A stretch of DNA of 28,638 bases. It comes from a virus (Duplodnaviria; Caudoviricetes). The notes beneath the pieces were generated by a model. It made no database searches. It was not told the origin of the DNA and saw only the letters and a list, made by a program, of their open reading frames with translations. Below are positions 1,376 to 25,262 of the stretch, in pieces (within the stretch, counting starts at the first letter, position 1; every line of letters begins with the position of its first letter). A program made the position numbers and the translations under genes. The stretch covers positions 1 through 28,638 of the IMG/VR virus record IMGVR_UViG_3300035164_000372; one strand, given 5' to 3'.

Positions 1376-1404
1376 TTGCTTTGCAAAAGTCTATAAGATA
1401 TTAT
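1376..1404 (+). promoter_or_regulatory. Sigma70-like promoter for the replication operon
   Basis: TTGCTT (1376-1381), 17 nt spacer, TATTAT (1399-1404); AAGGAG RBS before ATG 1450. Confidence 0.55.
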
Positions 1405-1449: not shown

Positions 1450-2211
1450 ATGAGTTTAACAATCACTGACAAAGGGGGAAGTGCTGACTTCCCAAAACTT
1501 GAAAAAGGGATCTACGAGGGCACATTGTATTCCATCGTTGATCTAGGAACCAGGCTTGAAGCTTTTGGTAATGACGAACCAAAACCTAAACACCAGGTAA
1601 CGCTGGCTTTTGAAATTACCGCAGCGGTAAGACCTGAAAATAATCAAACCCTCATGGAAGACGGCCGACCTTTTGCGGTTTCAAAAAAATACACTCTGTC
1701 TTTACATGAAAAAGCGGCCTTACGTTTGGACGTTGAATCCTGGCGCGGCATGAGCTTATCGGATGAAGAGCTCAGAGGTTTTGATTTAGTAGGTTTATTA
1801 GGCATGACTGCAAAAATAGAAGTGGGTCACACGAACCCAATGCCAGACGGCACCGGCGGCGGTAATCCAAAAATAATTGCCTTACGTGAACCAGCGGGTG
1901 GCAGTCAAAAGGTCCCGACTAAGAACGAACAAAAAGCTTTTGATTTAGAAATATATTGTGAAGAGTTCAATGGCAACTCCTCACCAAAAACTAAGGCCAT
2001 GTGTGATGTGTTTGACAGTTTGCCCGAATGGCAACAAAAACAGATACAGGAAAGTTTCGAATATTTAGCAGCTAACGACGGCGAGCCCGTGCAAAATACA
2101 ACAGCTGCGACCCATGAAGATTTAGGCAGACTTTCCGAGACAGCTGTGGCAGCTCCAGAAGTACAGACACCACAGCGAAAGAAGTTCGAAGACGACGAGA
2201 TTCCTTTTTGA
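1450..2211 (+). CDS. Phage single-stranded DNA-binding/replication protein
   Basis: 253 aa, beta-rich N-terminus (GIYEGTLYSIVDLG, SKKYTLSLHEKAALR) and acidic SSB-type C-terminal tail FEDDEIPF; strong RBS. Confidence 0.7.
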   Translation: MSLTITDKGGSADFPKLEKGIYEGTLYSIVDLGTRLEAFGNDEPKPKHQVTLAFEITAAVRPENNQTLMEDGRPFAVSKKYTLSLHEKAALRLDVESWRGMSLSDEELRGFDLVGLLGMTAKIEVGHTNPMPDGTGGGNPKIIALREPAGGSQKVPTKNEQKAFDLEIYCEEFNGNSSPKTKAMCDVFDSLPEWQQKQIQESFEYLAANDGEPVQNTTAATHEDLGRLSETAVAAPEVQTPQRKKFEDDEIPF

Positions 2212-2218
2212 TTTCACC

Positions 2219-2271
2219 GGTGGGCGGCCCTTCTCCATTTGTCTCACAACCAAGGTCTAAGGCTGCTCACC
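2219..2271 (+). ncRNA. Putative structured RNA hairpin between the SSB-like and DUF6378-like genes
   Basis: GGTGGGCGGCC(C)TT pairs with AAGGCTGCTCACC (13 bp, two G-U pairs that only form on the + strand transcript); about 26 nt loop. Confidence 0.5.
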
Positions 2272-2282
2272 ACCCAGTAGGT

Positions 2283-2564
2283 ATGTATTTAGAAAAAGCA
2301 CAACAGATAGCAGATCTCCTAGATCAAAAGGGCGCAGACTATGCCACCCCCGATAAATTTTTTATACAGCTGGCTAACGCCTGGAGCGGCCTCCTGGGCG
2401 TAAAACTAACGCCATCGCAATGTTGTTCAATGATGATAGTTTTTAAGGCCTGTCGCATGGTAGCTAACCCTAAGCATGAAGACAGCGCCGACGACCTCGT
2501 TGGCTACTCATTGATTTGTACGGAGCTGGCCAAGTTACAAAGAGAACATGAGCAACCAGATTAA
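2283..2564 (+). CDS. DUF6378-like all-helical protein (possible nucleotide pyrophosphohydrolase-like fold)
   Basis: Pattern KGADYATP..F..LANAWSGLLG..LT...CSMMIVFKACR.....HEDSADDLVGYS; likely start ATG 2283 (AGGT upstream) rather than 2208. Confidence 0.65.
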   Translation: MYLEKAQQIADLLDQKGADYATPDKFFIQLANAWSGLLGVKLTPSQCCSMMIVFKACRMVANPKHEDSADDLVGYSLICTELAKLQREHEQPD

Positions 2565-3258
2565 CTACGAAGTTCACACGCTCCCAGCTGCTTTAATGAT
2601 TGGACACCAGTTGACCGACCAGGTAGTGACCACTCTCAACGATTACCTGGACGCCTTAAAAAAAAACAAGGAGCGCGTATCAGCGGCCAACAATCTAGTT
2701 GGCCAGATTCACCAAGGCGAGCAACTTGTCATGGATTTTAAGGATGATTCTCTGACACCCTTTGTCAGAATTGTTGAGAGTCTAGCCTCAGCTTATCTTA
2801 GACATTTCGTGGAGCAAACACACTCTCCATTAAGGCCCAAGAAAATATCTATAGATAAGCTGTGGTCCGTGCATAGCTATGAGGGAGATTACAACCCAAT
2901 ACACGATCATCTGACCACAGCGCCCACGGGTTTGTCTTTTACCACTTGGACCATGGTTCCGGAACAAATACGCACCAATCAAAAATCAATCGATTTGTAT
3001 AATAACTCTGGAGCAATAGACGGCTACATAAATTTTACTTACGGCTTGAATCAATTAGGCGATCCGGAGCGACTTAGGCCGTCGCAAGCTCGTTATATAA
3101 AACCCGAACCAGGAAAGCTTTTGTTGTTTCCCTCTTGGATGCAACACTGCGTTTATCCTTTTTTCGGTGAAGGTGAACGTCGCACTGTTGCTGGTAACTT
3201 AAATTGTTTTGATCTCACCGAAGAAGAAATAAAGGAGCTATCTAATGAAAGAATTTAA
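2548..3258 (+). CDS. 2OG-Fe(II) oxygenase, TIGR02466-like family
   Basis: YNPIHDH, PEPGKLLLFPSWMQHCVYPF and RRTVAGN motifs of the DSBH fold. Confidence 0.85.
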   Translation: MSNQINYEVHTLPAALMIGHQLTDQVVTTLNDYLDALKKNKERVSAANNLVGQIHQGEQLVMDFKDDSLTPFVRIVESLASAYLRHFVEQTHSPLRPKKISIDKLWSVHSYEGDYNPIHDHLTTAPTGLSFTTWTMVPEQIRTNQKSIDLYNNSGAIDGYINFTYGLNQLGDPERLRPSQARYIKPEPGKLLLFPSWMQHCVYPFFGEGERRTVAGNLNCFDLTEEEIKELSNERI

Positions 3259-4021
3259 AGTAGGCGTTTACGAGGATCTAAGTTACGAACAATACGCTGA
3301 GATCCCAGCACGCAGATCTCACGATTTAACAGCAGTTATCAAATGTCCTTACACCTGGAAGAACAGAAAAGAGTTAGAACAAACACCAGCCTTATTAGAG
3401 GGACGTGTGCAACACACAGTATTTTTAGAGCATCATAAATTTGCAGAGGAGTTTGTGATCCAACCCGCAGTGGACCGAAGAACCAAAGCTGGTAAAGCAG
3501 ATTACGAAGATTTTTTAGCGTCCGTTGGAAATAGGACACCGATAACACAAGACATGTATGACACTTGTATGCAACGCCGTGAAATAGTTAAGGACTACAT
3601 TCCCAAAACAACCGACAAGGCAGAGCTCACTTTGGTTTTTGAGTGGCATGGAGAGCCATTCAAAGCCAGATTTGATTGGTATGATGGTGAATGTATCTGG
3701 GACCTTAAAACCTGTCGTGACGCCTCACCAAGAGGTTTTAAACAGGCTATCAACGCCTTCAACTATCACATGCAAGCAGCGCTATATATTGACGCTGCTA
3801 GAGCTTTAGGCTTAACAGCTAAGGCCTTTAATTTTCTGGCCCAAGAAAAACAAGATCCGTATCCGTTTGTGATTTATACACTACACCCGGAGGCCATAAA
3901 ATACGCACAGGCCAAAAACCAACAAGCGCTACGTTTGATACAAGAATGTGAGGCCAGCCAAGATTTCAAACCTTACAATTTAGAGGGCATACAAGAAGTA
4001 GGATTGAAGGATCTATACTAA
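3245..4021 (+). CDS. RecE/exonuclease VIII-like PD-(D/E)XK nuclease (DUF3799-like)
   Basis: ALLEGRVQHTVFLE, DRRTKAGK, FKARFDW, IWDLKT and YHMQAALY motifs. Confidence 0.88.
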   Translation: MKEFKVGVYEDLSYEQYAEIPARRSHDLTAVIKCPYTWKNRKELEQTPALLEGRVQHTVFLEHHKFAEEFVIQPAVDRRTKAGKADYEDFLASVGNRTPITQDMYDTCMQRREIVKDYIPKTTDKAELTLVFEWHGEPFKARFDWYDGECIWDLKTCRDASPRGFKQAINAFNYHMQAALYIDAARALGLTAKAFNFLAQEKQDPYPFVIYTLHPEAIKYAQAKNQQALRLIQECEASQDFKPYNLEGIQEVGLKDLY

Positions 4022-4051
4022 AAAAAAAGGAGGCTTTCGCCTCCTCTTTTT
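4020..4051. terminator. Bidirectional intrinsic terminator
   Basis: A-run, AGGAGGC-TTTC-GCCTCCT stem-loop (4028-4045), T-run; lies between convergent genes. Confidence 0.88.
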
Positions 4052-4063
4052 CTTGTTAATATT

Positions 4064-4348
4064 TTAGAAACCAGCCATCAAAGTTCCTGAATCATAAGGC
4101 TCCCAATACCAACCCTCATATTGGCTTAAGACTTTTTCTATGATGGGATGGACTTGCTGGTCACACTCGTTGTATGTGTCGTAGATCGGCAAACCATCTG
4201 AGGCAATCTCTTCACTACCTGTAAACCAAATTCCGATTCTTTCATCATCATCATAAAATTTTGAAACAGGCACTGCACCACACTCAGGTAACAACTTATT
4301 AAGTTTCTTAATAATATTTGTTTCTTCTCTTTTAAATGATCTTCTCAT
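4064..4348 (-). CDS. Hypothetical phage protein (cassette A)
   Basis: 94 aa, ATGA overlap with the upstream gene, GAGGTG RBS. Confidence 0.8.
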   Translation of the reverse strand: MRRSFKREETNIIKKLNKLLPECGAVPVSKFYDDDERIGIWFTGSEEIASDGLPIYDTYNECDQQVHPIIEKVLSQYEGWYWEPYDSGTLMAGF

Positions 4349-4626
4349 TTTACACCTCTTCTTTTGTTAATAATTTTATCGTGATATTCGGAGAAATTTT
4401 GTGAATCATCGAGCATGAATTCAAAAAATTTATCTTTTATATCTGGATTCAAATTCTGATAAAAATAATCTAAATTATCTTCATCCACATATTCTGTAAC
4501 AAGGTCGTAACATCCTCTGCAAACAACCCCGCCTTCAACACCTTTATCGCAAGCGCCACAACAAGAAGAAAATTGTCTTTTGTATTCACCACTTGGTAAA
4601 GGTCTTTCTAAAATTATTGCCATCAA
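4345..4626 (-). CDS. Hypothetical protein with putative Cys4 zinc ribbon (cassette A)
   Basis: SSCCGAC...VCRGCYD; start coupled to the upstream stop; GGAGGTGG RBS. Confidence 0.78.
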   Translation of the reverse strand: MMAIILERPLPSGEYKRQFSSCCGACDKGVEGGVVCRGCYDLVTEYVDEDNLDYFYQNLNPDIKDKFFEFMLDDSQNFSEYHDKIINKRRGVK

Positions 4627-5081
4627 GCCACCTCCTTAACTAAATCTTTAACCTCATCCCAAGCAACAAAGTCGTCTCTTCCGTAGAGCAAGTCGCCCGC
4701 TAATCTTTTGTATTCCCAGTCGGGGTTTTGGGAGTAACCTAAATTGACCTTGCCTCTGACAAACTCTTCAAGTTTTTCTAAGGCCTTGTCTTGTACTTCC
4801 CAAGCGTACTCAACGAACAAGTATTTAGTTTGTGGTATGTTCTCTATAACGTTGTTATATTCGTAAATGTCTTCCATACCATTGAAATTACCATATTTAT
4901 ATTTAGCCAACTCATCTTTTAAAGTCTCGTAAACAGCTGGATCAAGTATCTCTTTGATCTCAACACGCACGCTACTACCCCCGCTGAATAGTTCGGACCT
5001 TACGCTAGCCTTGATATTCATGTCTTTTAAGAGCTTTCTTATCTCAGCTGCGCACTTAGCTACTATACTTTTATAAGCCAT
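4623..5081 (-). CDS. LPD29-like (large polyvalent protein-associated domain) protein (cassette A)
   Basis: ASVRSELFSGGSSVRV and YKYGNFNGMEDIYEY motifs; start ATG 5081 follows GGAGG; the ORF-track extension to 5165 overlaps the promoter. Confidence 0.7.
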   Translation of the reverse strand: MAYKSIVAKCAAEIRKLLKDMNIKASVRSELFSGGSSVRVEIKEILDPAVYETLKDELAKYKYGNFNGMEDIYEYNNVIENIPQTKYLFVEYAWEVQDKALEKLEEFVRGKVNLGYSQNPDWEYKRLAGDLLYGRDDFVAWDEVKDLVKEVA

Positions 5082-5165
5082 TTTTCCTCCTTTTTTTTGA
5101 TTAATTAAATGTCTCACATAGTTATAATACCAGATGTGCAAATTTTTGCAACTATTTGCAAACAT
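5081..5165 (-). promoter_or_regulatory. Cassette promoter/leader, copy 1
   Basis: TTGCAA-16 nt-TATTAT with TG extension, leader TGTGAGACATTTAATTAATCAAA, GGAGG RBS; 63/80 identical to 25131-25210. Confidence 0.8.
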
Positions 5166-5174
5166 TATTTTTAA

Positions 5175-5891: not shown

Positions 5892-5962
5892 GGCCCCGAT
5901 TATAACAGATACAGGTCAATATTTATTTGTATATTTCTCCAAACTTTTATAGAATGGAGCAA
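5892..5962. promoter_or_regulatory. Back-to-back promoters, both apparently leaderless
   Basis: Minus: TGtTATAAT (5907-5899), 7 nt from ATG 5891. Plus: TTGTAT (5927-5932), 17 nt, TAGAAT (5950-5955), 7 nt from ATG 5963. Confidence 0.6.
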
Positions 5963-6163
5963 ATGATTACAGAATCTAGTACAAAACAGACAAAAAAAGA
6001 TGGCAAAGAAATCAGGAAGAGTCTTGCTGTAGATCCGGCTACTTATGATCTTTTGCAAGAAATTTGCACTATGGAACATAGATCCAAAATAGACCAGCTG
6101 AAAGTTTTGATTCAAAAAGAACACAAAAGACTTACTAATGAGCAAGAGGCCGAAGTTGTTTAA
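5963..6163 (+). CDS. Putative ribbon-helix-helix DNA-binding protein
   Basis: RKSLAVDPATYDLLQEICTMEHRSKIDQLKVLIQKE fits the strand-helix-helix pattern of the Arc/CopG type; start placed at ATG 5963. Confidence 0.65.
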   Translation: MITESSTKQTKKDGKEIRKSLAVDPATYDLLQEICTMEHRSKIDQLKVLIQKEHKRLTNEQEAEVV

Positions 6164-11690: not shown

Positions 11691-14204
11691 TCACGAAGGT
11701 TTAGCTTGTTCACTGAAAGTATCCATAACCTTATACATAACGTCCATGCCTCTTTCCCTGTCCTCTTCTAAACTAGGTATTAAATTGATGATTCCACCTG
11801 GCTCTGTTTTCATTTCATAAGAACCAGCGCCTCTCACTGCTCTAGCTGTCATTACAAACTCACCATCCGAAAGCATTGCTGGTATGTCGTCACTTTGTTC
11901 TGTGCCTGGACCATTGATGTCGCCGTCCATCGGTGGAAAGTTGTTAGGATCCATTTCGCCGCCTTCTTGCATAGCCACGGCCCCGCCTTGTGCAAAAGCC
12001 ATAATGCCACCGCCCATGGCTCTTTGAACCACATCTGTTTGTCTGAACGGATTATTATATAATTGGCGAGCGCCAAAATGGTCAAATCCATTAGCTAATT
12101 GATCTAAACCTACGTTACGCGCTTCTGCTAAATCATTGTCATAAGCATCTGCCATAGCAGCTCTTTGTTCTGGTTTTAAAGTATCGACAAGCTGAGGCGC
12201 TAATATTAAAGTTCTTAAAAGGCTAGTCAATCTCGGATTACCGCGCACAAACTCTCTGCTTTCTTTTACCATTATGTTAGATGGTTGGCTGATAAAATCA
12301 TCTACGACCTTATCGTAAACCGCTCCTCCCTCTTGCATGCCTTGAGCCATACCGCCCTCTAATTCTTCTATAGCGCCTCCCAATGAAGCCATCACCGGCG
12401 GATCTCCTACTACAGAATATTCGCTTAAGTTGACGGGAGACATGCTAGGTTCACCTGTTGAAGCTACAGCTGGATTAGCTCCTGAGAGCTCAGGAAAAGT
12501 GTTTGCCGGAGCCAAACCAAATTCTATCGGGTTGGGTATAGGCTGGCCTGTTCTTCTTGCTATTTCAGCCTCTATATTGTATCTACCCGTGGGACTCATT
12601 GTAGTAAGTGGAGTCAAAGGCACACCTTTTTGTTTTTGCGCGTCTTTGTAAGCTAATCTTCCCAAACCATAAGCTAACCCACCTATGCCAAGATTCCTAG
12701 CTAAACCACCAAAACCGCCAAAACCGCCCCCACCTCCGGCGCCTCCGCCTCCGCCTGTTAAACCTAAATTAGCAAACAAACCTCTGTTATCCTGTCCTGG
12801 TAAAATAAACTCTCCAGCTCTACGGAAAAATCCGCCTATACCGCCGCCACCAGTGCCAGGAATAGCTAAGTTTTGTCCAGCAAAAATCATATTCCTGTTA
12901 GCTATGCTTGGATTAGCTTTTACTAATGCGTCTACAGTGGTGCCAGTCCTAGAAGCTATTTGACTGAGAGTGTCACCAGGTTGGATCGTGTAATTTGCTC
13001 CTGGGTTAATACCAGGCGTAGTTGGGCCACCAAAAAAAGATCCTATGCCTTTTCTGATGTTGCCGAACAAACCTACCTTATCGGTGCCAGGCAAAATAAA
13101 TTCTTTAGCTCTATTAAAAAATCCGCCTATGCCTCCAGCTCCGCGTATACCACCAGCTACCGCAGAACCTATGCCTCCTAAAGCCGCACCTTTAAGCGCG
13201 CCTTTTATACCGCCACCACTTACAGCTCCGCCAAGACCACCTATTAAAGCTGCTGTGGCACCACCAGTAAATGGAGCTGCAATCAAACCAGCGTAAGGTG
13301 CTACTTTTTTTACTACTTTTTTTATACCTTTGAAAACTTTTTTTAAGAAAAATTGTTGTAAGCCGGTTGTTGGATTCAAAGAGCCTATACCACCGACCAC
13401 AGCCTCTTCCGGATTTATGCCGCTTTCATCAAACTTTTTTTCTACTTGATCTGCAAACTCATCATCTTCTAAAAATTCAGGCGGCAAGACTACTTCACCT
13501 AGTCTAAGGTGTGCTAATTCTGTATCTTCTTTTAAGCCTTGCTCCCTTAATGCTTTTGCTAACCCACCTAATGGAGCAGCCTCTAAAGCAGCCTCTTGTT
13601 TCAACAGCCTATCTATTGTTTCTTGTTCCTCTTCATCTGGACTCTCTATTAATGAATCCAAGCCTTGGGCCATAACCCCACCTTCTAGTATAGTTTTTGC
13701 TTGTTCCCTAAGAGCTGGATCCACCGCAGAACCCATATCCATAGGATCCACCGCAGAACCCATATCCAAATCAGGCAAACTACGAGGCATAAGCATAGGG
13801 TCAGGCATAGGTACTGACCTAGGAATTGAGTTAGGATCTAGCCTGGGCGTAGGCATAGGTACTGACCTAGGAATTGCGTTAGGATCTGGCTCGGGCGAAG
13901 GCATAGGCACTGACCTCGGAAATTCTGATCCCTCTGGCGGTATCAGTTCTAAATCTTTTGGCCTATAAATACCCTCAGCTCTATCCTCAATACCATTTCG
14001 ATTTACGTCTCTAAACTCTAAAGTCTGTGCTGATTTAGGCCTCATGTTTGAAGGGATAGGTGTGCCGTCTATAAATCTATTAGGATTTTCTTCTGCTCGC
14101 CTTAAAAAATCCGTCGCCGCATCTATTTCTTGGAATCGTTCTCGAATTGGGCTTACTCTTTGCAACTTGAAAACTTTTCTTAAACTTTCTTCTAATGCAC
14201 TCAT
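11691..14204 (-). CDS. Multidomain virion protein with LysM domain, Pro-rich repeats and tape-measure-like C-terminal motif
   Basis: LysM YTIQPGDTLSQIASRTGTTVDALVKANPSIANRNMIFAGQNLAIP (about 12858-12992); GPGTEQSDDIPAMLSDGEFVMTARAV; multiple xxGG motifs. Confidence 0.8.
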   Translation of the reverse strand: MSALEESLRKVFKLQRVSPIRERFQEIDAATDFLRRAEENPNRFIDGTPIPSNMRPKSAQTLEFRDVNRNGIEDRAEGIYRPKDLELIPPEGSEFPRSVPMPSPEPDPNAIPRSVPMPTPRLDPNSIPRSVPMPDPMLMPRSLPDLDMGSAVDPMDMGSAVDPALREQAKTILEGGVMAQGLDSLIESPDEEEQETIDRLLKQEAALEAAPLGGLAKALREQGLKEDTELAHLRLGEVVLPPEFLEDDEFADQVEKKFDESGINPEEAVVGGIGSLNPTTGLQQFFLKKVFKGIKKVVKKVAPYAGLIAAPFTGGATAALIGGLGGAVSGGGIKGALKGAALGGIGSAVAGGIRGAGGIGGFFNRAKEFILPGTDKVGLFGNIRKGIGSFFGGPTTPGINPGANYTIQPGDTLSQIASRTGTTVDALVKANPSIANRNMIFAGQNLAIPGTGGGGIGGFFRRAGEFILPGQDNRGLFANLGLTGGGGGAGGGGGFGGFGGLARNLGIGGLAYGLGRLAYKDAQKQKGVPLTPLTTMSPTGRYNIEAEIARRTGQPIPNPIEFGLAPANTFPELSGANPAVASTGEPSMSPVNLSEYSVVGDPPVMASLGGAIEELEGGMAQGMQEGGAVYDKVVDDFISQPSNIMVKESREFVRGNPRLTSLLRTLILAPQLVDTLKPEQRAAMADAYDNDLAEARNVGLDQLANGFDHFGARQLYNNPFRQTDVVQRAMGGGIMAFAQGGAVAMQEGGEMDPNNFPPMDGDINGPGTEQSDDIPAMLSDGEFVMTARAVRGAGSYEMKTEPGGIINLIPSLEEDRERGMDVMYKVMDTFSEQAKPS
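13717..13922. repeat. In-frame tandem repeats (27 bp x2 and 48 bp x about 2.5)
   Basis: GGATCCACCGCAGAACCCATATCC twice (DMGSAVDP); GGCATAGG[T/C]ACTGACCT[A/C]GGAA three times (PRSVPMP). Confidence 0.9.
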
Positions 14205-20226: not shown

Positions 20227-20709
20227 CTATTTGCCGTATAAGCCGCCTCTTCTACTTTTTCCATACTTGTAAGCACCTTTAGATCCTGTCTGTGGGTTTC
20301 TTGGTCTTCTGGGCTTAGGCTTAGATTCTACTAAAGGTTCTTGTTTAGCAATACCTCCAGTGAAAAACCCTTTAACACCTTTAGCCATACCGCCACCCTT
20401 GGCCATGCCTTTAGTGCCTTTCATAGCTCCACCTTGCGCCATGCCTTTTGTTCCTTTTAGCATCGGCTTAGATCCAGCTGCTCTTGTGCCTTGGCCCATC
20501 AAAGCTGACATAACTGATTTAGGCATATTGCTCATTCCAGGATTAGCTTGCATTTCTGCTTGAGCTGCGCCGCCCATGGACATATATTTAGTGCCTTTCA
20601 TGGCACCGCCTTGAGCCATACCTTTAGTTCTCTTCATAGCACCGCCTCCAGCTCTATATTTAGTGCCCTTCATAGCACCGCCTCCAGCTCTATATTTAGT
20701 ACGTTTCAT
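20227..20709 (-). CDS. Lys/Gly/Met-rich repeat protein
   Basis: 160 aa with 12-aa repeats MK[RG]TK[YG][RM]A[GQK]GG; AGGAG RBS. Confidence 0.8.
   Translation of the reverse strand: MKRTKYRAGGGAMKGTKYRAGGGAMKRTKGMAQGGAMKGTKYMSMGGAAQAEMQANPGMSNMPKSVMSALMGQGTRAAGSKPMLKGTKGMAQGGAMKGTKGMAKGGGMAKGVKGFFTGGIAKQEPLVESKPKPRRPRNPQTGSKGAYKYGKSRRGGLYGK
20388..20709. repeat. 36-bp in-frame tandem repeats, two blocks (about 20388-20465 and 20575-20709)
   Basis: e.g. TTCATAGCACCGCCTCCAGCTCTATATTTAGT repeated at 36-nt period. Confidence 0.88.
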
Positions 20710-23406: not shown

Positions 23407-23916
23407 CTAGGCTATTTCTTTGGCAACAATAGGGTCCTCTCTAGATAATAAATACTCTAGTTGAGCTAGAGTGCTAGTCATGCTGGTGTGATGAATGGCA
23501 ATGCCGCCGGCGTTTTGCCAAGCATTACAATTTGATTTTTTATCATCTACCAAAACATGTCCTGGCTGCGCAAAAACAGATTTGTGTTTGCCTTTTAAAG
23601 TACCTGTAACTACTACGTGAGGATCTACATATCTTTTTATCCAAGCCATTTTGTCAGCCATTACTAAAGATCTATTGATCTCTCCGGTTGCTGTAAGGAC
23701 CTCCCAAGGCAAACCGGTATCTTTGACAAAAGCCACAAGATCTAACATGCCTGGCATTACTGGCAAGTTTCTAAAAAGTCTTTTGTTAATGTACTCAGCT
23801 TTTTTATTGTCGTAGTGATTTTCATCTTGTAGAGGCCCGTTTATGTAATCTGGGCCTTCTACACCCGTGACAAAATCTGCCAGAACGCCATCCATGTCTA
23901 AATATATTTTATTCAT
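23407..23916 (-). CDS. HAD-superfamily 5'(3')-deoxyribonucleotidase (NT5C-like) (cassette B)
   Basis: IYLDMDGVLADF motif I, VLTA motif II, K..W, LVDD...N...W...GG..I.H. Confidence 0.88.
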   Translation of the reverse strand: MNKIYLDMDGVLADFVTGVEGPDYINGPLQDENHYDNKKAEYINKRLFRNLPVMPGMLDLVAFVKDTGLPWEVLTATGEINRSLVMADKMAWIKRYVDPHVVVTGTLKGKHKSVFAQPGHVLVDDKKSNCNAWQNAGGIAIHHTSMTSTLAQLEYLLSREDPIVAKEIA

Positions 23917-24251
23917 TCTACTCTATCGAATATTGGTACCGGCCCTAAGCCATAAACATTGCCAAGATCTTCACCCATTAACTCTCTGCATTTGTCACCA
24001 AACCTAGAGTCTGAGGTGTAAGCAAAATTACCGCCAAACATTGCGTCCTTATCTGATTTTGATTCCGGCATTAAATATAGAGAACATCCAAACCCAAACT
24101 TTTGTTTGATTAGTTTAGCTGCTGGATAGTCCTCACAAGGCTCAAAAGGACCTCTAATATCTGTTATTGTGAAACCTTTTTTTGTAGCAGACTCACCATT
24201 TATGGTGCAATCTTCTCCCTCGCGTCTATATACATTTACAAGAATTCCCAT
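23913..24251 (-). CDS. Hypothetical phage protein (cassette B)
   Basis: 112 aa, DCTINGES, GPFEP, MFGGNFAYTSDSRF, PVPIFDRVE; TAATG coupling. Confidence 0.8.
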   Translation of the reverse strand: MGILVNVYRREGEDCTINGESATKKGFTITDIRGPFEPCEDYPAAKLIKQKFGFGCSLYLMPESKSDKDAMFGGNFAYTSDSRFGDKCRELMGEDLGNVYGLGPVPIFDRVE

Positions 24252-24700
24252 TACGCCACCTCCTCAGCTGGCACATATTTTTTAACAGCCTCGTCGATAC
24301 TGCCAGAGAATATCAACTCAACTTTTTCTTCATACTCATTGTCTAAGAAGCTCTCTTGCTCTTCACCAACCAAAACATTAGTATGGCTAAACACTTCAAC
24401 ATAATTGTCGTCAGTAATTTCGTAGTGATAGGCTAGGTCCCCATGTCTTTTATAATCATCAGTAAACTCTTTGGCCCTGTTTGTAATTAGTGGAGAAGCC
24501 ATAAACCCAGTCACCATTTTGTCACTTTCATGGCTCAGGTTTTCCCCAAACTCATCTGCCGGTAACTGGTCCCCATAATCTTTGGCGGCCTTAATAAAAC
24601 TAATACCGCCAGCTGGATAGCCATCGTGATGTTTATAGATGGTTATATCTTTGCGATACGGACCACTTTGTTTAAATACGTAACAAGCTCTAGTGCTCAT
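24251..24700 (-). CDS. Hypothetical phage protein (cassette B)
   Basis: Start ATG 24700 after GGAGG; MSTRA...IYKHHDGYP.G...HGDLAYHYEI. Confidence 0.8.
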   Translation of the reverse strand: MSTRACYVFKQSGPYRKDITIYKHHDGYPAGGISFIKAAKDYGDQLPADEFGENLSHESDKMVTGFMASPLITNRAKEFTDDYKRHGDLAYHYEITDDNYVEVFSHTNVLVGEEQESFLDNEYEEKVELIFSGSIDEAVKKYVPAEEVA

Positions 24701-24739
24701 ATTTACCTCCATTTATTTGATTAATTAAAAGATTTTTCA

Positions 24740-25129
24740 TTACGCCACCTCCTCTTCTTGGTTAAGTAAATCATTAAGTTTTTTTAAAAAATACAAAGCA
24801 GCCTGTGCTTTACCTTTATCTTTATAAAAGATCCTTTTAGTTGAGCCGTGTCTAGGATAGTCAGCTAAACTTTCGTCGTGGAGAAGATCGTAATCCTCAA
24901 GCAAGTTTAAATAAGCGTTGGCATCATAATGAGCTTGTATGCCATCCATATAATCAACAAGTCTCATGCCTGTCATTTTGTTTGGTAACTTGATGCTGTA
25001 CTCCGGGAAATTGTCTTTTCTCCCGTTTTTTTCATCATAATTATAAGCGTCTTTAACTATCTCTAATTCGACGTTCATAAACTCGTCATATTCATCAGAA
25101 TATTTTGTAACACATAAAAAATTTTTCAA
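24740..25129 (-). CDS. Hypothetical acidic phage protein (cassette B)
   Basis: 129 aa, TTG start 6 nt after GGAGG, ends EEEVA. Confidence 0.75.
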   Translation of the reverse strand: MKNFLCVTKYSDEYDEFMNVELEIVKDAYNYDEKNGRKDNFPEYSIKLPNKMTGMRLVDYMDGIQAHYDANAYLNLLEDYDLLHDESLADYPRHGSTKRIFYKDKGKAQAALYFLKKLNDLLNQEEEVA

Positions 25130-25130
25130 T

Positions 25131-25215
25131 TTTTACCTCCATTGATTTGATTAATTAATTGTCCCACATGGTTATGATACCAAAGTTGCTAAAAATTGCA
25201 ACTATTTATAAACAA
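25131..25215 (-). promoter_or_regulatory. Cassette promoter/leader, copy 2
   Basis: TTGCAA-16 nt-TATCAT with TG extension, leader TGTGGGACAATTAATTAATCAAA, GGAGG RBS; homologous to 5081-5165. Confidence 0.8.
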
Positions 25216-25235: not shown

Positions 25236-25262
25236 AAAAAAAAGGGCCCCGTAGGGCCCTTT
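25236..25262 (-). terminator. Intrinsic terminator downstream of the major capsid gene
   Basis: AAAGGGCCC-TACG-GGGCCCTTT plus T-run on the minus strand; UNCG-type tetraloop. Confidence 0.9.

Follow-up and report, generated by a model that had tools for sequence, protein, structure and literature searches.

What does an RNA hairpin do when it lies directly behind an SSB-like gene and displays a loop complementary to the beginnings of messages encoded elsewhere in the same genome? We addressed this question in the window, the whole stretch of 28,638 nucleotides analysed here, which is the entire 28.6-kb virus record IMGVR_UViG_3300035164_000372 (estimated completeness 54%) and encodes a major capsid protein with 61-64% identity to its counterparts in phage DSL-LC04 and Pelagibacter phage HTVC023P. 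Comparison with relatives indicates that the hairpin is very probably a trans-pairing antisense RNA that matches no described family. We also consider it likely that this RNA represses early gene cassettes in the manner of the C4 and CI RNAs. The features at the hairpin locus are as follows.

1376..1404, plus strand: candidate ssb-operon promoter TTGCTT-17-TATTAT, recognized by eye (the promoter scan did not flag it)
1427-1400, minus strand: primase promoter, flagged by the promoter scan
1450..2211, plus strand: SSB-like gene, 253 aa, C-terminus DDEIPF, stop 7 nt 5' of the hairpin start
2219..2271, plus strand: RNA hairpin, 11-bp stem 2219-2229/2261-2271, 31-nt open loop 2230-2260
2231..2239, plus strand: anti-SD block and linker UUCUCCAUU, complementary to the SD of genes 5081 (6 bp) and 25129 (7 bp)
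2239..2248, plus strand: anti-5'-end block UUGUCUCACA, complementary to the predicted first nucleotides of both cassette transcripts
2272..2274, plus strand: ACC tail directly 3' of the stem, a candidate RNase P determinant
2283..2564, plus strand: DUF6378 gene, starting 11 nt 3' of the stem, without SD
2548..4021, plus strand: 2OG-Fe(II) oxygenase and RecE/exonuclease VIII-like genes, the remainder of the hairpin's operon

The hairpin thus sits inside an ssb-DUF6378-2OG-RecE operon. An earlier note on this DNA had placed it in the replication operon; the primase gene lies on the opposite strand. The product of 1450..2211 is likely an SSB: it has an acidic C-terminal tail and a beta-rich predicted model (pLDDT 78.5), and its top match in the fold search was PrgE (E 0.004), an OB-fold DNA-binding protein. 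We call the label likely rather than proven because the fold search gave nothing at E<=0.001. By eye, the ssb-operon promoter appears to be of the host type, like the cassette promoters described below. The candidate ssb and primase promoters point in opposite directions with overlapping -10 boxes (1376-1427), and relatives have a comparable layout.

The stem contains two G-U pairs (2223/2267 and 2226/2264), as previously claimed, but its contiguous length is 11 bp and not 13 bp: C2230 stands opposite A2260, and the remaining pairs of the MFE structure are weak inner pairs. For this genome alone the fold signal is modest (z = -1.16 for 2200-2300), and as DNA the hairpin folds at -9.8 kcal/mol. 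An Infernal comparison with the Rfam 15 covariance models, proposed in the earlier note, matched no family at the locus and gave only a truncated chance match of 7.8 bits at 2262-2320. An intrinsic terminator was ruled out by the 31-nt loop, the ACCC tail and the absence of a flag in the terminator scan. One RNA run (X1), available only as contigs that give neither strand, ends nor levels, includes a 151-nt contig across 2185-2333 at depth 8.2, with other contigs at depth 7-9 over ssb-operon and late genes. Cover is low and scattered, and these contigs count neither for nor against transcription of the hairpin.

The messages to which the loop points belong to two gene cassettes on the minus strand.

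4064..5081, minus strand: cassette A, three small genes, the first with a weak LPD29 match under the cut-off
5081..5119, minus strand: cassette A leader, target blocks 5118-5110 and 5090-5085 with an AU-rich spacer in between
5124..5151, minus strand: cassette A promoter TTGCAA-16-TATTAT with extended TG, from the promoter scan
23407..25129, minus strand: cassette B, four genes, the final one a 5'-3' deoxyribonucleotidase
24706..24716, minus strand: ribosome-binding site of gene 24700, third candidate target, 11 bp with 2 G-U, rank 4 of 42 starts
25129..25169, minus strand: cassette B leader, target blocks 25168-25159 and 25143-25137
25174..25201, minus strand: cassette B promoter TTGCAA-16-TATCAT with extended TG, from the promoter scan

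The promoter-leader regions of the two cassettes are 76% identical across 104 nt, and in both the target blocks follow immediately 3' of the matching promoters. The first G of GUG(A/G)G falls 7 nt past the -10 box in the cassette leaders, which is the usual +1 by sigma-70 geometry; the cassette transcription starts used here are predictions from this spacing.

Several further features of the genome were recorded. TTGCA/TGCAA motifs recur near the -35 boxes of early and replication promoters (5135-5166, 25189-25209, 1376-1428) and are possible operators. A 70-aa gene at 5951-6163 (plus strand), with its own promoter and ribbon-helix-helix features, is found in most long relatives and is a candidate repressor of the early promoters that carry these repeats. 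Hairpins between A and T runs at 4020-4050 (ssb operon/cassette A) and 25236-25262 (capsid gene/cassette B) are, from their pattern, likely two-way terminators. A 30-nt module encoding EVA-stop ends three cassette genes (4608-4637, 24236-24265, 24725-24754) and also serves as the following gene's SD, which hints at modular gene exchange. Gene 24700 bears at 24699-24728 a duplicate of the cassette leader's 3' half that lacks both a promoter and the 5' block, and tandem coding repeats with units of 36 nt and 48 nt occur in virion-region genes at 20391-20702 and 13792-13935.

In outline, the loop is the anti-SD block plus CUCACA, and the pairings that the earlier note had proposed were largely recovered. 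The 9-nt complement to the cassette A leader, TGTGAGACA, is present solely at 5118 (minus strand) and in the hairpin, and the partner of the 10-nt pairing in the cassette B leader, TGTGGGACA, is found solely at 25168 (minus strand). AATGGAG at the ribosome-binding site (RBS) of gene 25129 is located at 25143, and the UUCUCC/GGAGGA pairing at gene 5081 at 5090-5085. The match to gene 24700, AAATGGAG at 24714, is present and longer than the 8 bp claimed: the anti-SD block plus 2240-2241 pairs over 11 bp with two G-U. This gene carries no 5' block. For the cassette B leader each of the proposed 10-bp and 7-bp helices exists, but the two blocks share U2239 and therefore cannot both form completely.

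A two-block score over 42 hand-listed gene starts ranked the cassette A leader first and the cassette B leader second. The prediction that both would rank top genome-wide held for leader B, first of 8,120 windows, whereas leader A ranked sixth. In an unconstrained duplex scan leader A was 26th of the listed sites, with the self-match counted. The window's own ssb RBS pairs with the loop over 4 bp only (rank 34/42). The helix at the 5' end is computed at -12.5 kcal/mol, compared with -6.0 to -7.3 kcal/mol for the SD helix; opening costs are 1.7 kcal/mol for the loop (for the 9-10-nt block) and 3.2-4.1 kcal/mol for the targets, and the cassette leaders are nearly unstructured. The single-genome signal is modest to moderate, and the case rests on relatives.

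SSB searches, including two scans that covered the best 80 of 567 and the best 80 of 254 relatives, yielded 213 records with the window among them; after removal of 6 that lacked a stop codon and 8 that were duplicated or read in the wrong frame, 199 loci remained. A gapless stem of at least 8 bp, 2-20 nt after the SSB stop, is present in 196 of them, the exceptions being a bulged stem (L104) and two loci without a stem (L271/L272). The 103 distinct hairpins have a median stem of 11 bp, loops of 15-48 nt and a median distance of 7 nt between stem and SSB stop. In a search tolerant of both mismatch types, G-U outnumbers A-C by 117 to 10, with a preference for the plus strand in 57 hairpins and for the minus strand in none; thus the plus strand folds. 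Plus-versus-minus MFE alone was uninformative (59 versus 44). In an alignment of 58 of the 59 distinct CUCAC-loop hairpins, chosen for that loop, 92.3% of stem cells are paired and double changes occur at 10 of 11 pairs. None of 500 shuffles, which ignore relatedness, paired as highly, and slid controls reached 35-53%. The gene 3' of the hairpin differs among relatives, and the hairpin therefore travels with the 3' end of ssb. On this comparative evidence, the hairpin is a real, conserved structured element under structural selection, folded from the plus strand.

The genes after the hairpin lack an SD in 64 of 91 cases and mostly start 8-12 nt past the stem, a possible sign of translational coupling across it. 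In some lineages (L026, L031, L027, L093) the loop's 3' half forms an additional inner hairpin, with compensatory changes noted by eye, and others (L040-L042, L053-L056, L067, L214) have a second small GC-rich hairpin behind the main stem.

The reach of the element was explored in several collections. An estimated ~1,100 stretches of the viral collection match the pattern, and 567 of the 600 examined were relatives. The exact loop pattern had 0 matches in viral contigs, and blastn against annotated phages gave no match. In the isolate EXVC032P Baldr, one of nine tblastn records, the SSB homolog abuts the next gene and leaves no space for a hairpin, so that record provides no cultured carrier. 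A scan for the promoter plus GUGAUGAU leader gave 120 loci, of which 119 were read and 2 were promoter-like, with no new hairpin-bearing record. No record showed a second hairpin copy with model R1 (33 matches in 1.56 Mb); because this model is insensitive to distant hairpins, divergent paralogs may exist.

If the loop is a guide, it should change together with its targets, and in relatives it does so. To call early promoters we used a matrix derived solely from their -35 and -10 regions; 96 of 196 loci contain one or more with a score of 17 or higher. A quick tree was divided by hand into 21 clades, across which loops pair with their own leaders at -15.85 kcal/mol and with those of other clades at -11.99 kcal/mol (p<1e-5). 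This clade permutation (double-centred diagonal -3.68, sd 0.56; same p with a single-helix score) treats clades as exchangeable and ignores the tree. Tree-aware tests found 1-4 independent pairs per trait, nearly all in the predicted direction and none significant, and they cannot reach significance because there are too few independent events. The covariation that the earlier note had called for is therefore seen in the stem and, across clades, between loop and leader, with the tree-aware tests non-significant.

The agreement extends to single bases. By locus, a CUCAC loop and a GUG(A/G)G leader occur together in 58 cases, with 1 and 7 discordant and 30 with neither; the corresponding counts are 15, 0, 0 and 44 for AUCUCAC with GUGRGAU and 18, 4, 0 and 37 for GUCUCAC with GUGRGAC. 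SD variants are followed as well: CCCUCC loops face a GGAGGG SD in 8/8 cases, and a UCACCUUU loop accompanies a AAAGGUGA leader. Among 37 distinct loop/leader combinations the second flanking position is Watson-Crick in 31 (G-C 10, A-U 8, U-A 12, C-G 1) and the first in 29, with 8 mismatched to their own loop. The core loop U stands opposite A 27 times and G 10 times; beyond the core the wobble bias is weak (G-U 14, A-C 13 over five trans-pair positions).

In 21 of 36 whole records the top-ranked start among all ORFs belonged to an early-promoter gene, where 1.5 were expected (21/27 in the near group, 0/9 in the distant group); several of these records are near copies, and 21 of the initial 57 were dropped with the early gene absent from the ORF set. 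In the near group the mean z is -2.79 for early leaders (17/28 below -2), -0.94 for the own leader (12/65), -0.21 for primase (1/29) and 0.18 for the downstream region (2/63); the mean z of the distant group is -0.74.

The stem persists in distant lineages, where the loops mostly match different start regions, the primase and ssb RBS among them. These matches were found by looking across lineages, and single cases therefore carry a multiple-testing risk. A lineage with a GGUGA-type SD (G042) bears its complement in the loop plus a match to the altered 5' end. Loops elsewhere pair over 11 bp with their own leader (L214), over 13 bp across the SD region of a leader (L183, G037), over 12 + 9 bp across the start codon and SD of a promoter-led gene (G034), and over 10 bp with another promoter-led gene (G044/45/58); in G015 (L081) the loop matches the leader 5' end plus the start region with the block order reversed. 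In the group with UCAUCA loops the primase RBS is matched at z<-2 in 11 of 20 distinct pairs, with helices of 8-12 bp, and 6 of 9 match the ssb RBS as well; in distant lineages one block fits the primase RBS and the next block the ssb RBS. A cis pseudoknot with the downstream start was set aside for the distant group, where the block is kept even if the downstream start lacks its match and the primase RBS fits better. Among sister lineages the linker tracks each lineage's own ssb RBS, with 8-11 bp paired, and such matches reach 10-11 bp in L004/5, L006, L008/10, L012/13 and L021; the corresponding cognate test over 29 clusters was not significant (p=0.057). No clear target was seen on the available sequence of L099, L100, L266, L256/259/267, L222, L226 and L086/088. 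The proposal of a plus-strand hairpin pairing in trans with leader 5' ends and SDs is thus supported by complementarity and covariation, and the target set is wider than claimed.

We propose that the hairpin is transcribed together with the ssb operon and would act either inside the ssb mRNA or once released, possibly via host RNase P at the ACC-tailed stem. CUCAC would pair with GUG(A/G)G at the free 5' end, and this end could wind into the closed loop; the anti-SD block would cover the SD while the AU-rich spacer loops out. Such pairing at the SD would block 30S binding, and it is from this overlap alone that we infer repression; with a rising RNA level the cassettes would be turned down jointly, which may or may not mark the early-to-middle switch proposed in the earlier note. 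The stem would serve as a fixed scaffold and the loop as a changeable guide, elsewhere matching primase, ssb or other early starts.

The sequence next to the stem bears on the release step. RCC directly follows the stem in 42 of 99 distinct hairpins, whereas none of 24 other offsets has it in more than 8 (38/69 in near and 4/30 in distant hairpins; 4 of the 103 were too short to count). For this count stems were trimmed to begin with a G-C pair, and the 5' G therefore partly reflects the trimming. RNase P relies on a 3' RCCA together with a 12-bp ruler, according to PMC11143913, and releases C4 at a stem beginning GGT, according to PMC5320573. By analogy, release by RNase P would be a reasonable step. 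More tentatively, and this may well prove too strong, a host-processed tRNA-acceptor-like scaffold with a reprogrammable loop could act as a master regulator that grips the first nucleotides and the SD of several unlinked transcripts simultaneously, its targets (early cassettes, primase, ssb) rewired between lineages.

Pairing in trans could also serve mainly as feedback on the phage's own replication genes, or for carrier or prophage maintenance through immunity or copy-number control, rather than to shut off early cassettes at a set time in a lytic cycle. Plasmid copy number can be controlled by antisense RNA plus a CopG-type repressor, and here a ribbon-helix-helix-like gene is conserved, sister-lineage linkers track their own ssb RBS over 10-11 bp, distant loops fit the primase RBS and then the ssb RBS, and a resolvase-family serine recombinase is present in 5/5 records at least 84% complete. 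C4 and CI themselves serve lysogeny, as far as their accessible descriptions go. The recombinase (262 aa; 13551-14336 in L122, G001) occurs in that and 20 other records (21/60), often 3' of a further early promoter; it is absent from the window, itself incomplete. Together with the ribbon-helix-helix gene, it makes a carrier or prophage state possible beside early shut-off. As the main role, however, we consider feedback or maintenance unlikely: pairing with the window's own ssb RBS is limited to 4 bp, the cognate test for own RBS fell short of significance, near-group z scores favour early leaders over the own leader and primase, and the species-genome collection holds no close SSB relative (one 32% match among 111 candidate stretches). 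It is distinctly unlikely that pairing instead activates or stabilizes the leaders, shielding the 5' end from decay, or triggers premature termination. Decay from the 5' end is sensitive to pairing, and the strongest helix does cover the predicted 5' end; P4 CI also works through termination (PMC4825925, in its available text). Yet the anti-SD block is kept and follows SD variants, several lineages pair solely over the SD and start codon, and the leaders, being almost free of structure, offer an RNA little to open.

Two readings dispense with trans pairing. In one, the stem acts in cis by bringing the ssb stop near the SD-less next start or by protecting the mRNA, and the loop match would be left over from a copied leader. 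The frequency of SD-less downstream starts just after the stem (64/91) and the close distance between stem and ssb stop would suit it, but it leaves unexplained why loops track leaders base by base, omit the AU spacer, occur with reversed order and switch to other genes; moreover, the near-group loop is unpaired with the downstream region, and the loop logic stays when the downstream gene changes. As a full account it is highly improbable, although a cis role may exist alongside the trans role. More improbable still is a protein-binding site common to hairpin and leaders, whether as an operator in DNA, as a hairpin of single-stranded DNA or as a minus-strand RNA that decoys a translational repressor. 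The minus-strand loop does resemble a compressed leader, the hairpin adjoins an SSB-like gene and folds as DNA, and DNA, too, tolerates G-T better than A-C. The G-U excess nevertheless speaks against a minus-strand hairpin, and the minus-strand decoy was rejected on these counts. The blocks are 0-9 nt apart in loops and ~12-28 nt apart in leaders, which does not resemble an operator. Opposite the core loop U stands A or G, as wobble permits, and the anti-SD block has no meaning at the DNA level. We therefore retain a trans-pairing antisense RNA that likely represses the early cassettes.

Most phage antisense RNAs described in the sources consulted belong to temperate phages that infect enteric bacteria, and they act on a single operon. 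If our reading is true, the hairpin adds an RNA regulator with several targets, carried by a family of marine phages known without culture, and a route for shutting off early genes read by host polymerase without a phage polymerase or sigma factor. Natural variants already supply cognate as well as non-cognate pairs, and from each loop one can predict the uncharacterized genes that its lineage regulates together. With its exchangeable guide, the 56-nt single-stem scaffold would moreover offer a compact means of controlling genes in bacteria.

Literature searches, with most subscription papers outside their scope, found no description of this hairpin RNA, but several known systems share parts of its design. 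Among phage RNA structures beside gp32/SSB genes, some of them marine, the candidates of Fremin et al. 2023 are similar in setting; as described in the accessible text, theirs lie upstream with a proposed cis role, whereas ours lies downstream. Overlap with the 10,006 candidates is possible, and term searches of four supplement files gave no match (PMC10690425). The RNAs sar and sas of P22, OOP and aQ of lambda, and 24B_1 are likewise made by phages and tune phage genes by pairing; in the portion of the source available, sar, sas, OOP and aQ have one target gene each, unlike the short seeds directed here at several unlinked messages (PMC12197685). The stem resembles RNase P substrates in having ~11 bp followed by RCC (PMC11143913, available text), but unlike tRNA substrates it has no T-loop, and its tail has C or U at the fourth base in most cases.

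The closest parallels are the P4 CI and P1/P7 C4 RNAs. From what the accessible text of PMC4825925 describes, P4 CI RNA is a processed antisense RNA with two target sequences that limits the phage's own genes, including replication genes. Its targets flank CI on its own transcript and lead to termination, whereas here they lie on other transcripts and the SD is covered; flanking targets are not found in the window, and some relatives match their own ssb RBS. C4 (RF01695), in the available part of PMC5320573, is a short RNA inside a longer transcript with an RBS block and an upstream block, its block sequence varies with the target, and both stems begin GGU/GGT. The pairing of an RBS with an upstream site recurs here in computed complementarity and covariation. 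The hairpin differs from C4 in having one stem and one large loop (with an inner hairpin in some lineages) rather than three stem-loops, in its length of ~56 nt rather than 77 nt, in targets located at the predicted 5' ends of separate transcripts, as much as 23 kb distant, and in target genes without antirepressor annotation. The C4 covariance model at E<=10 had matches in 0/5 records and none at the hairpin locus. Thus, with no model match, one stem instead of three and targets on separate transcripts, the RNA is a member of neither family, though it would function like C4 and CI.
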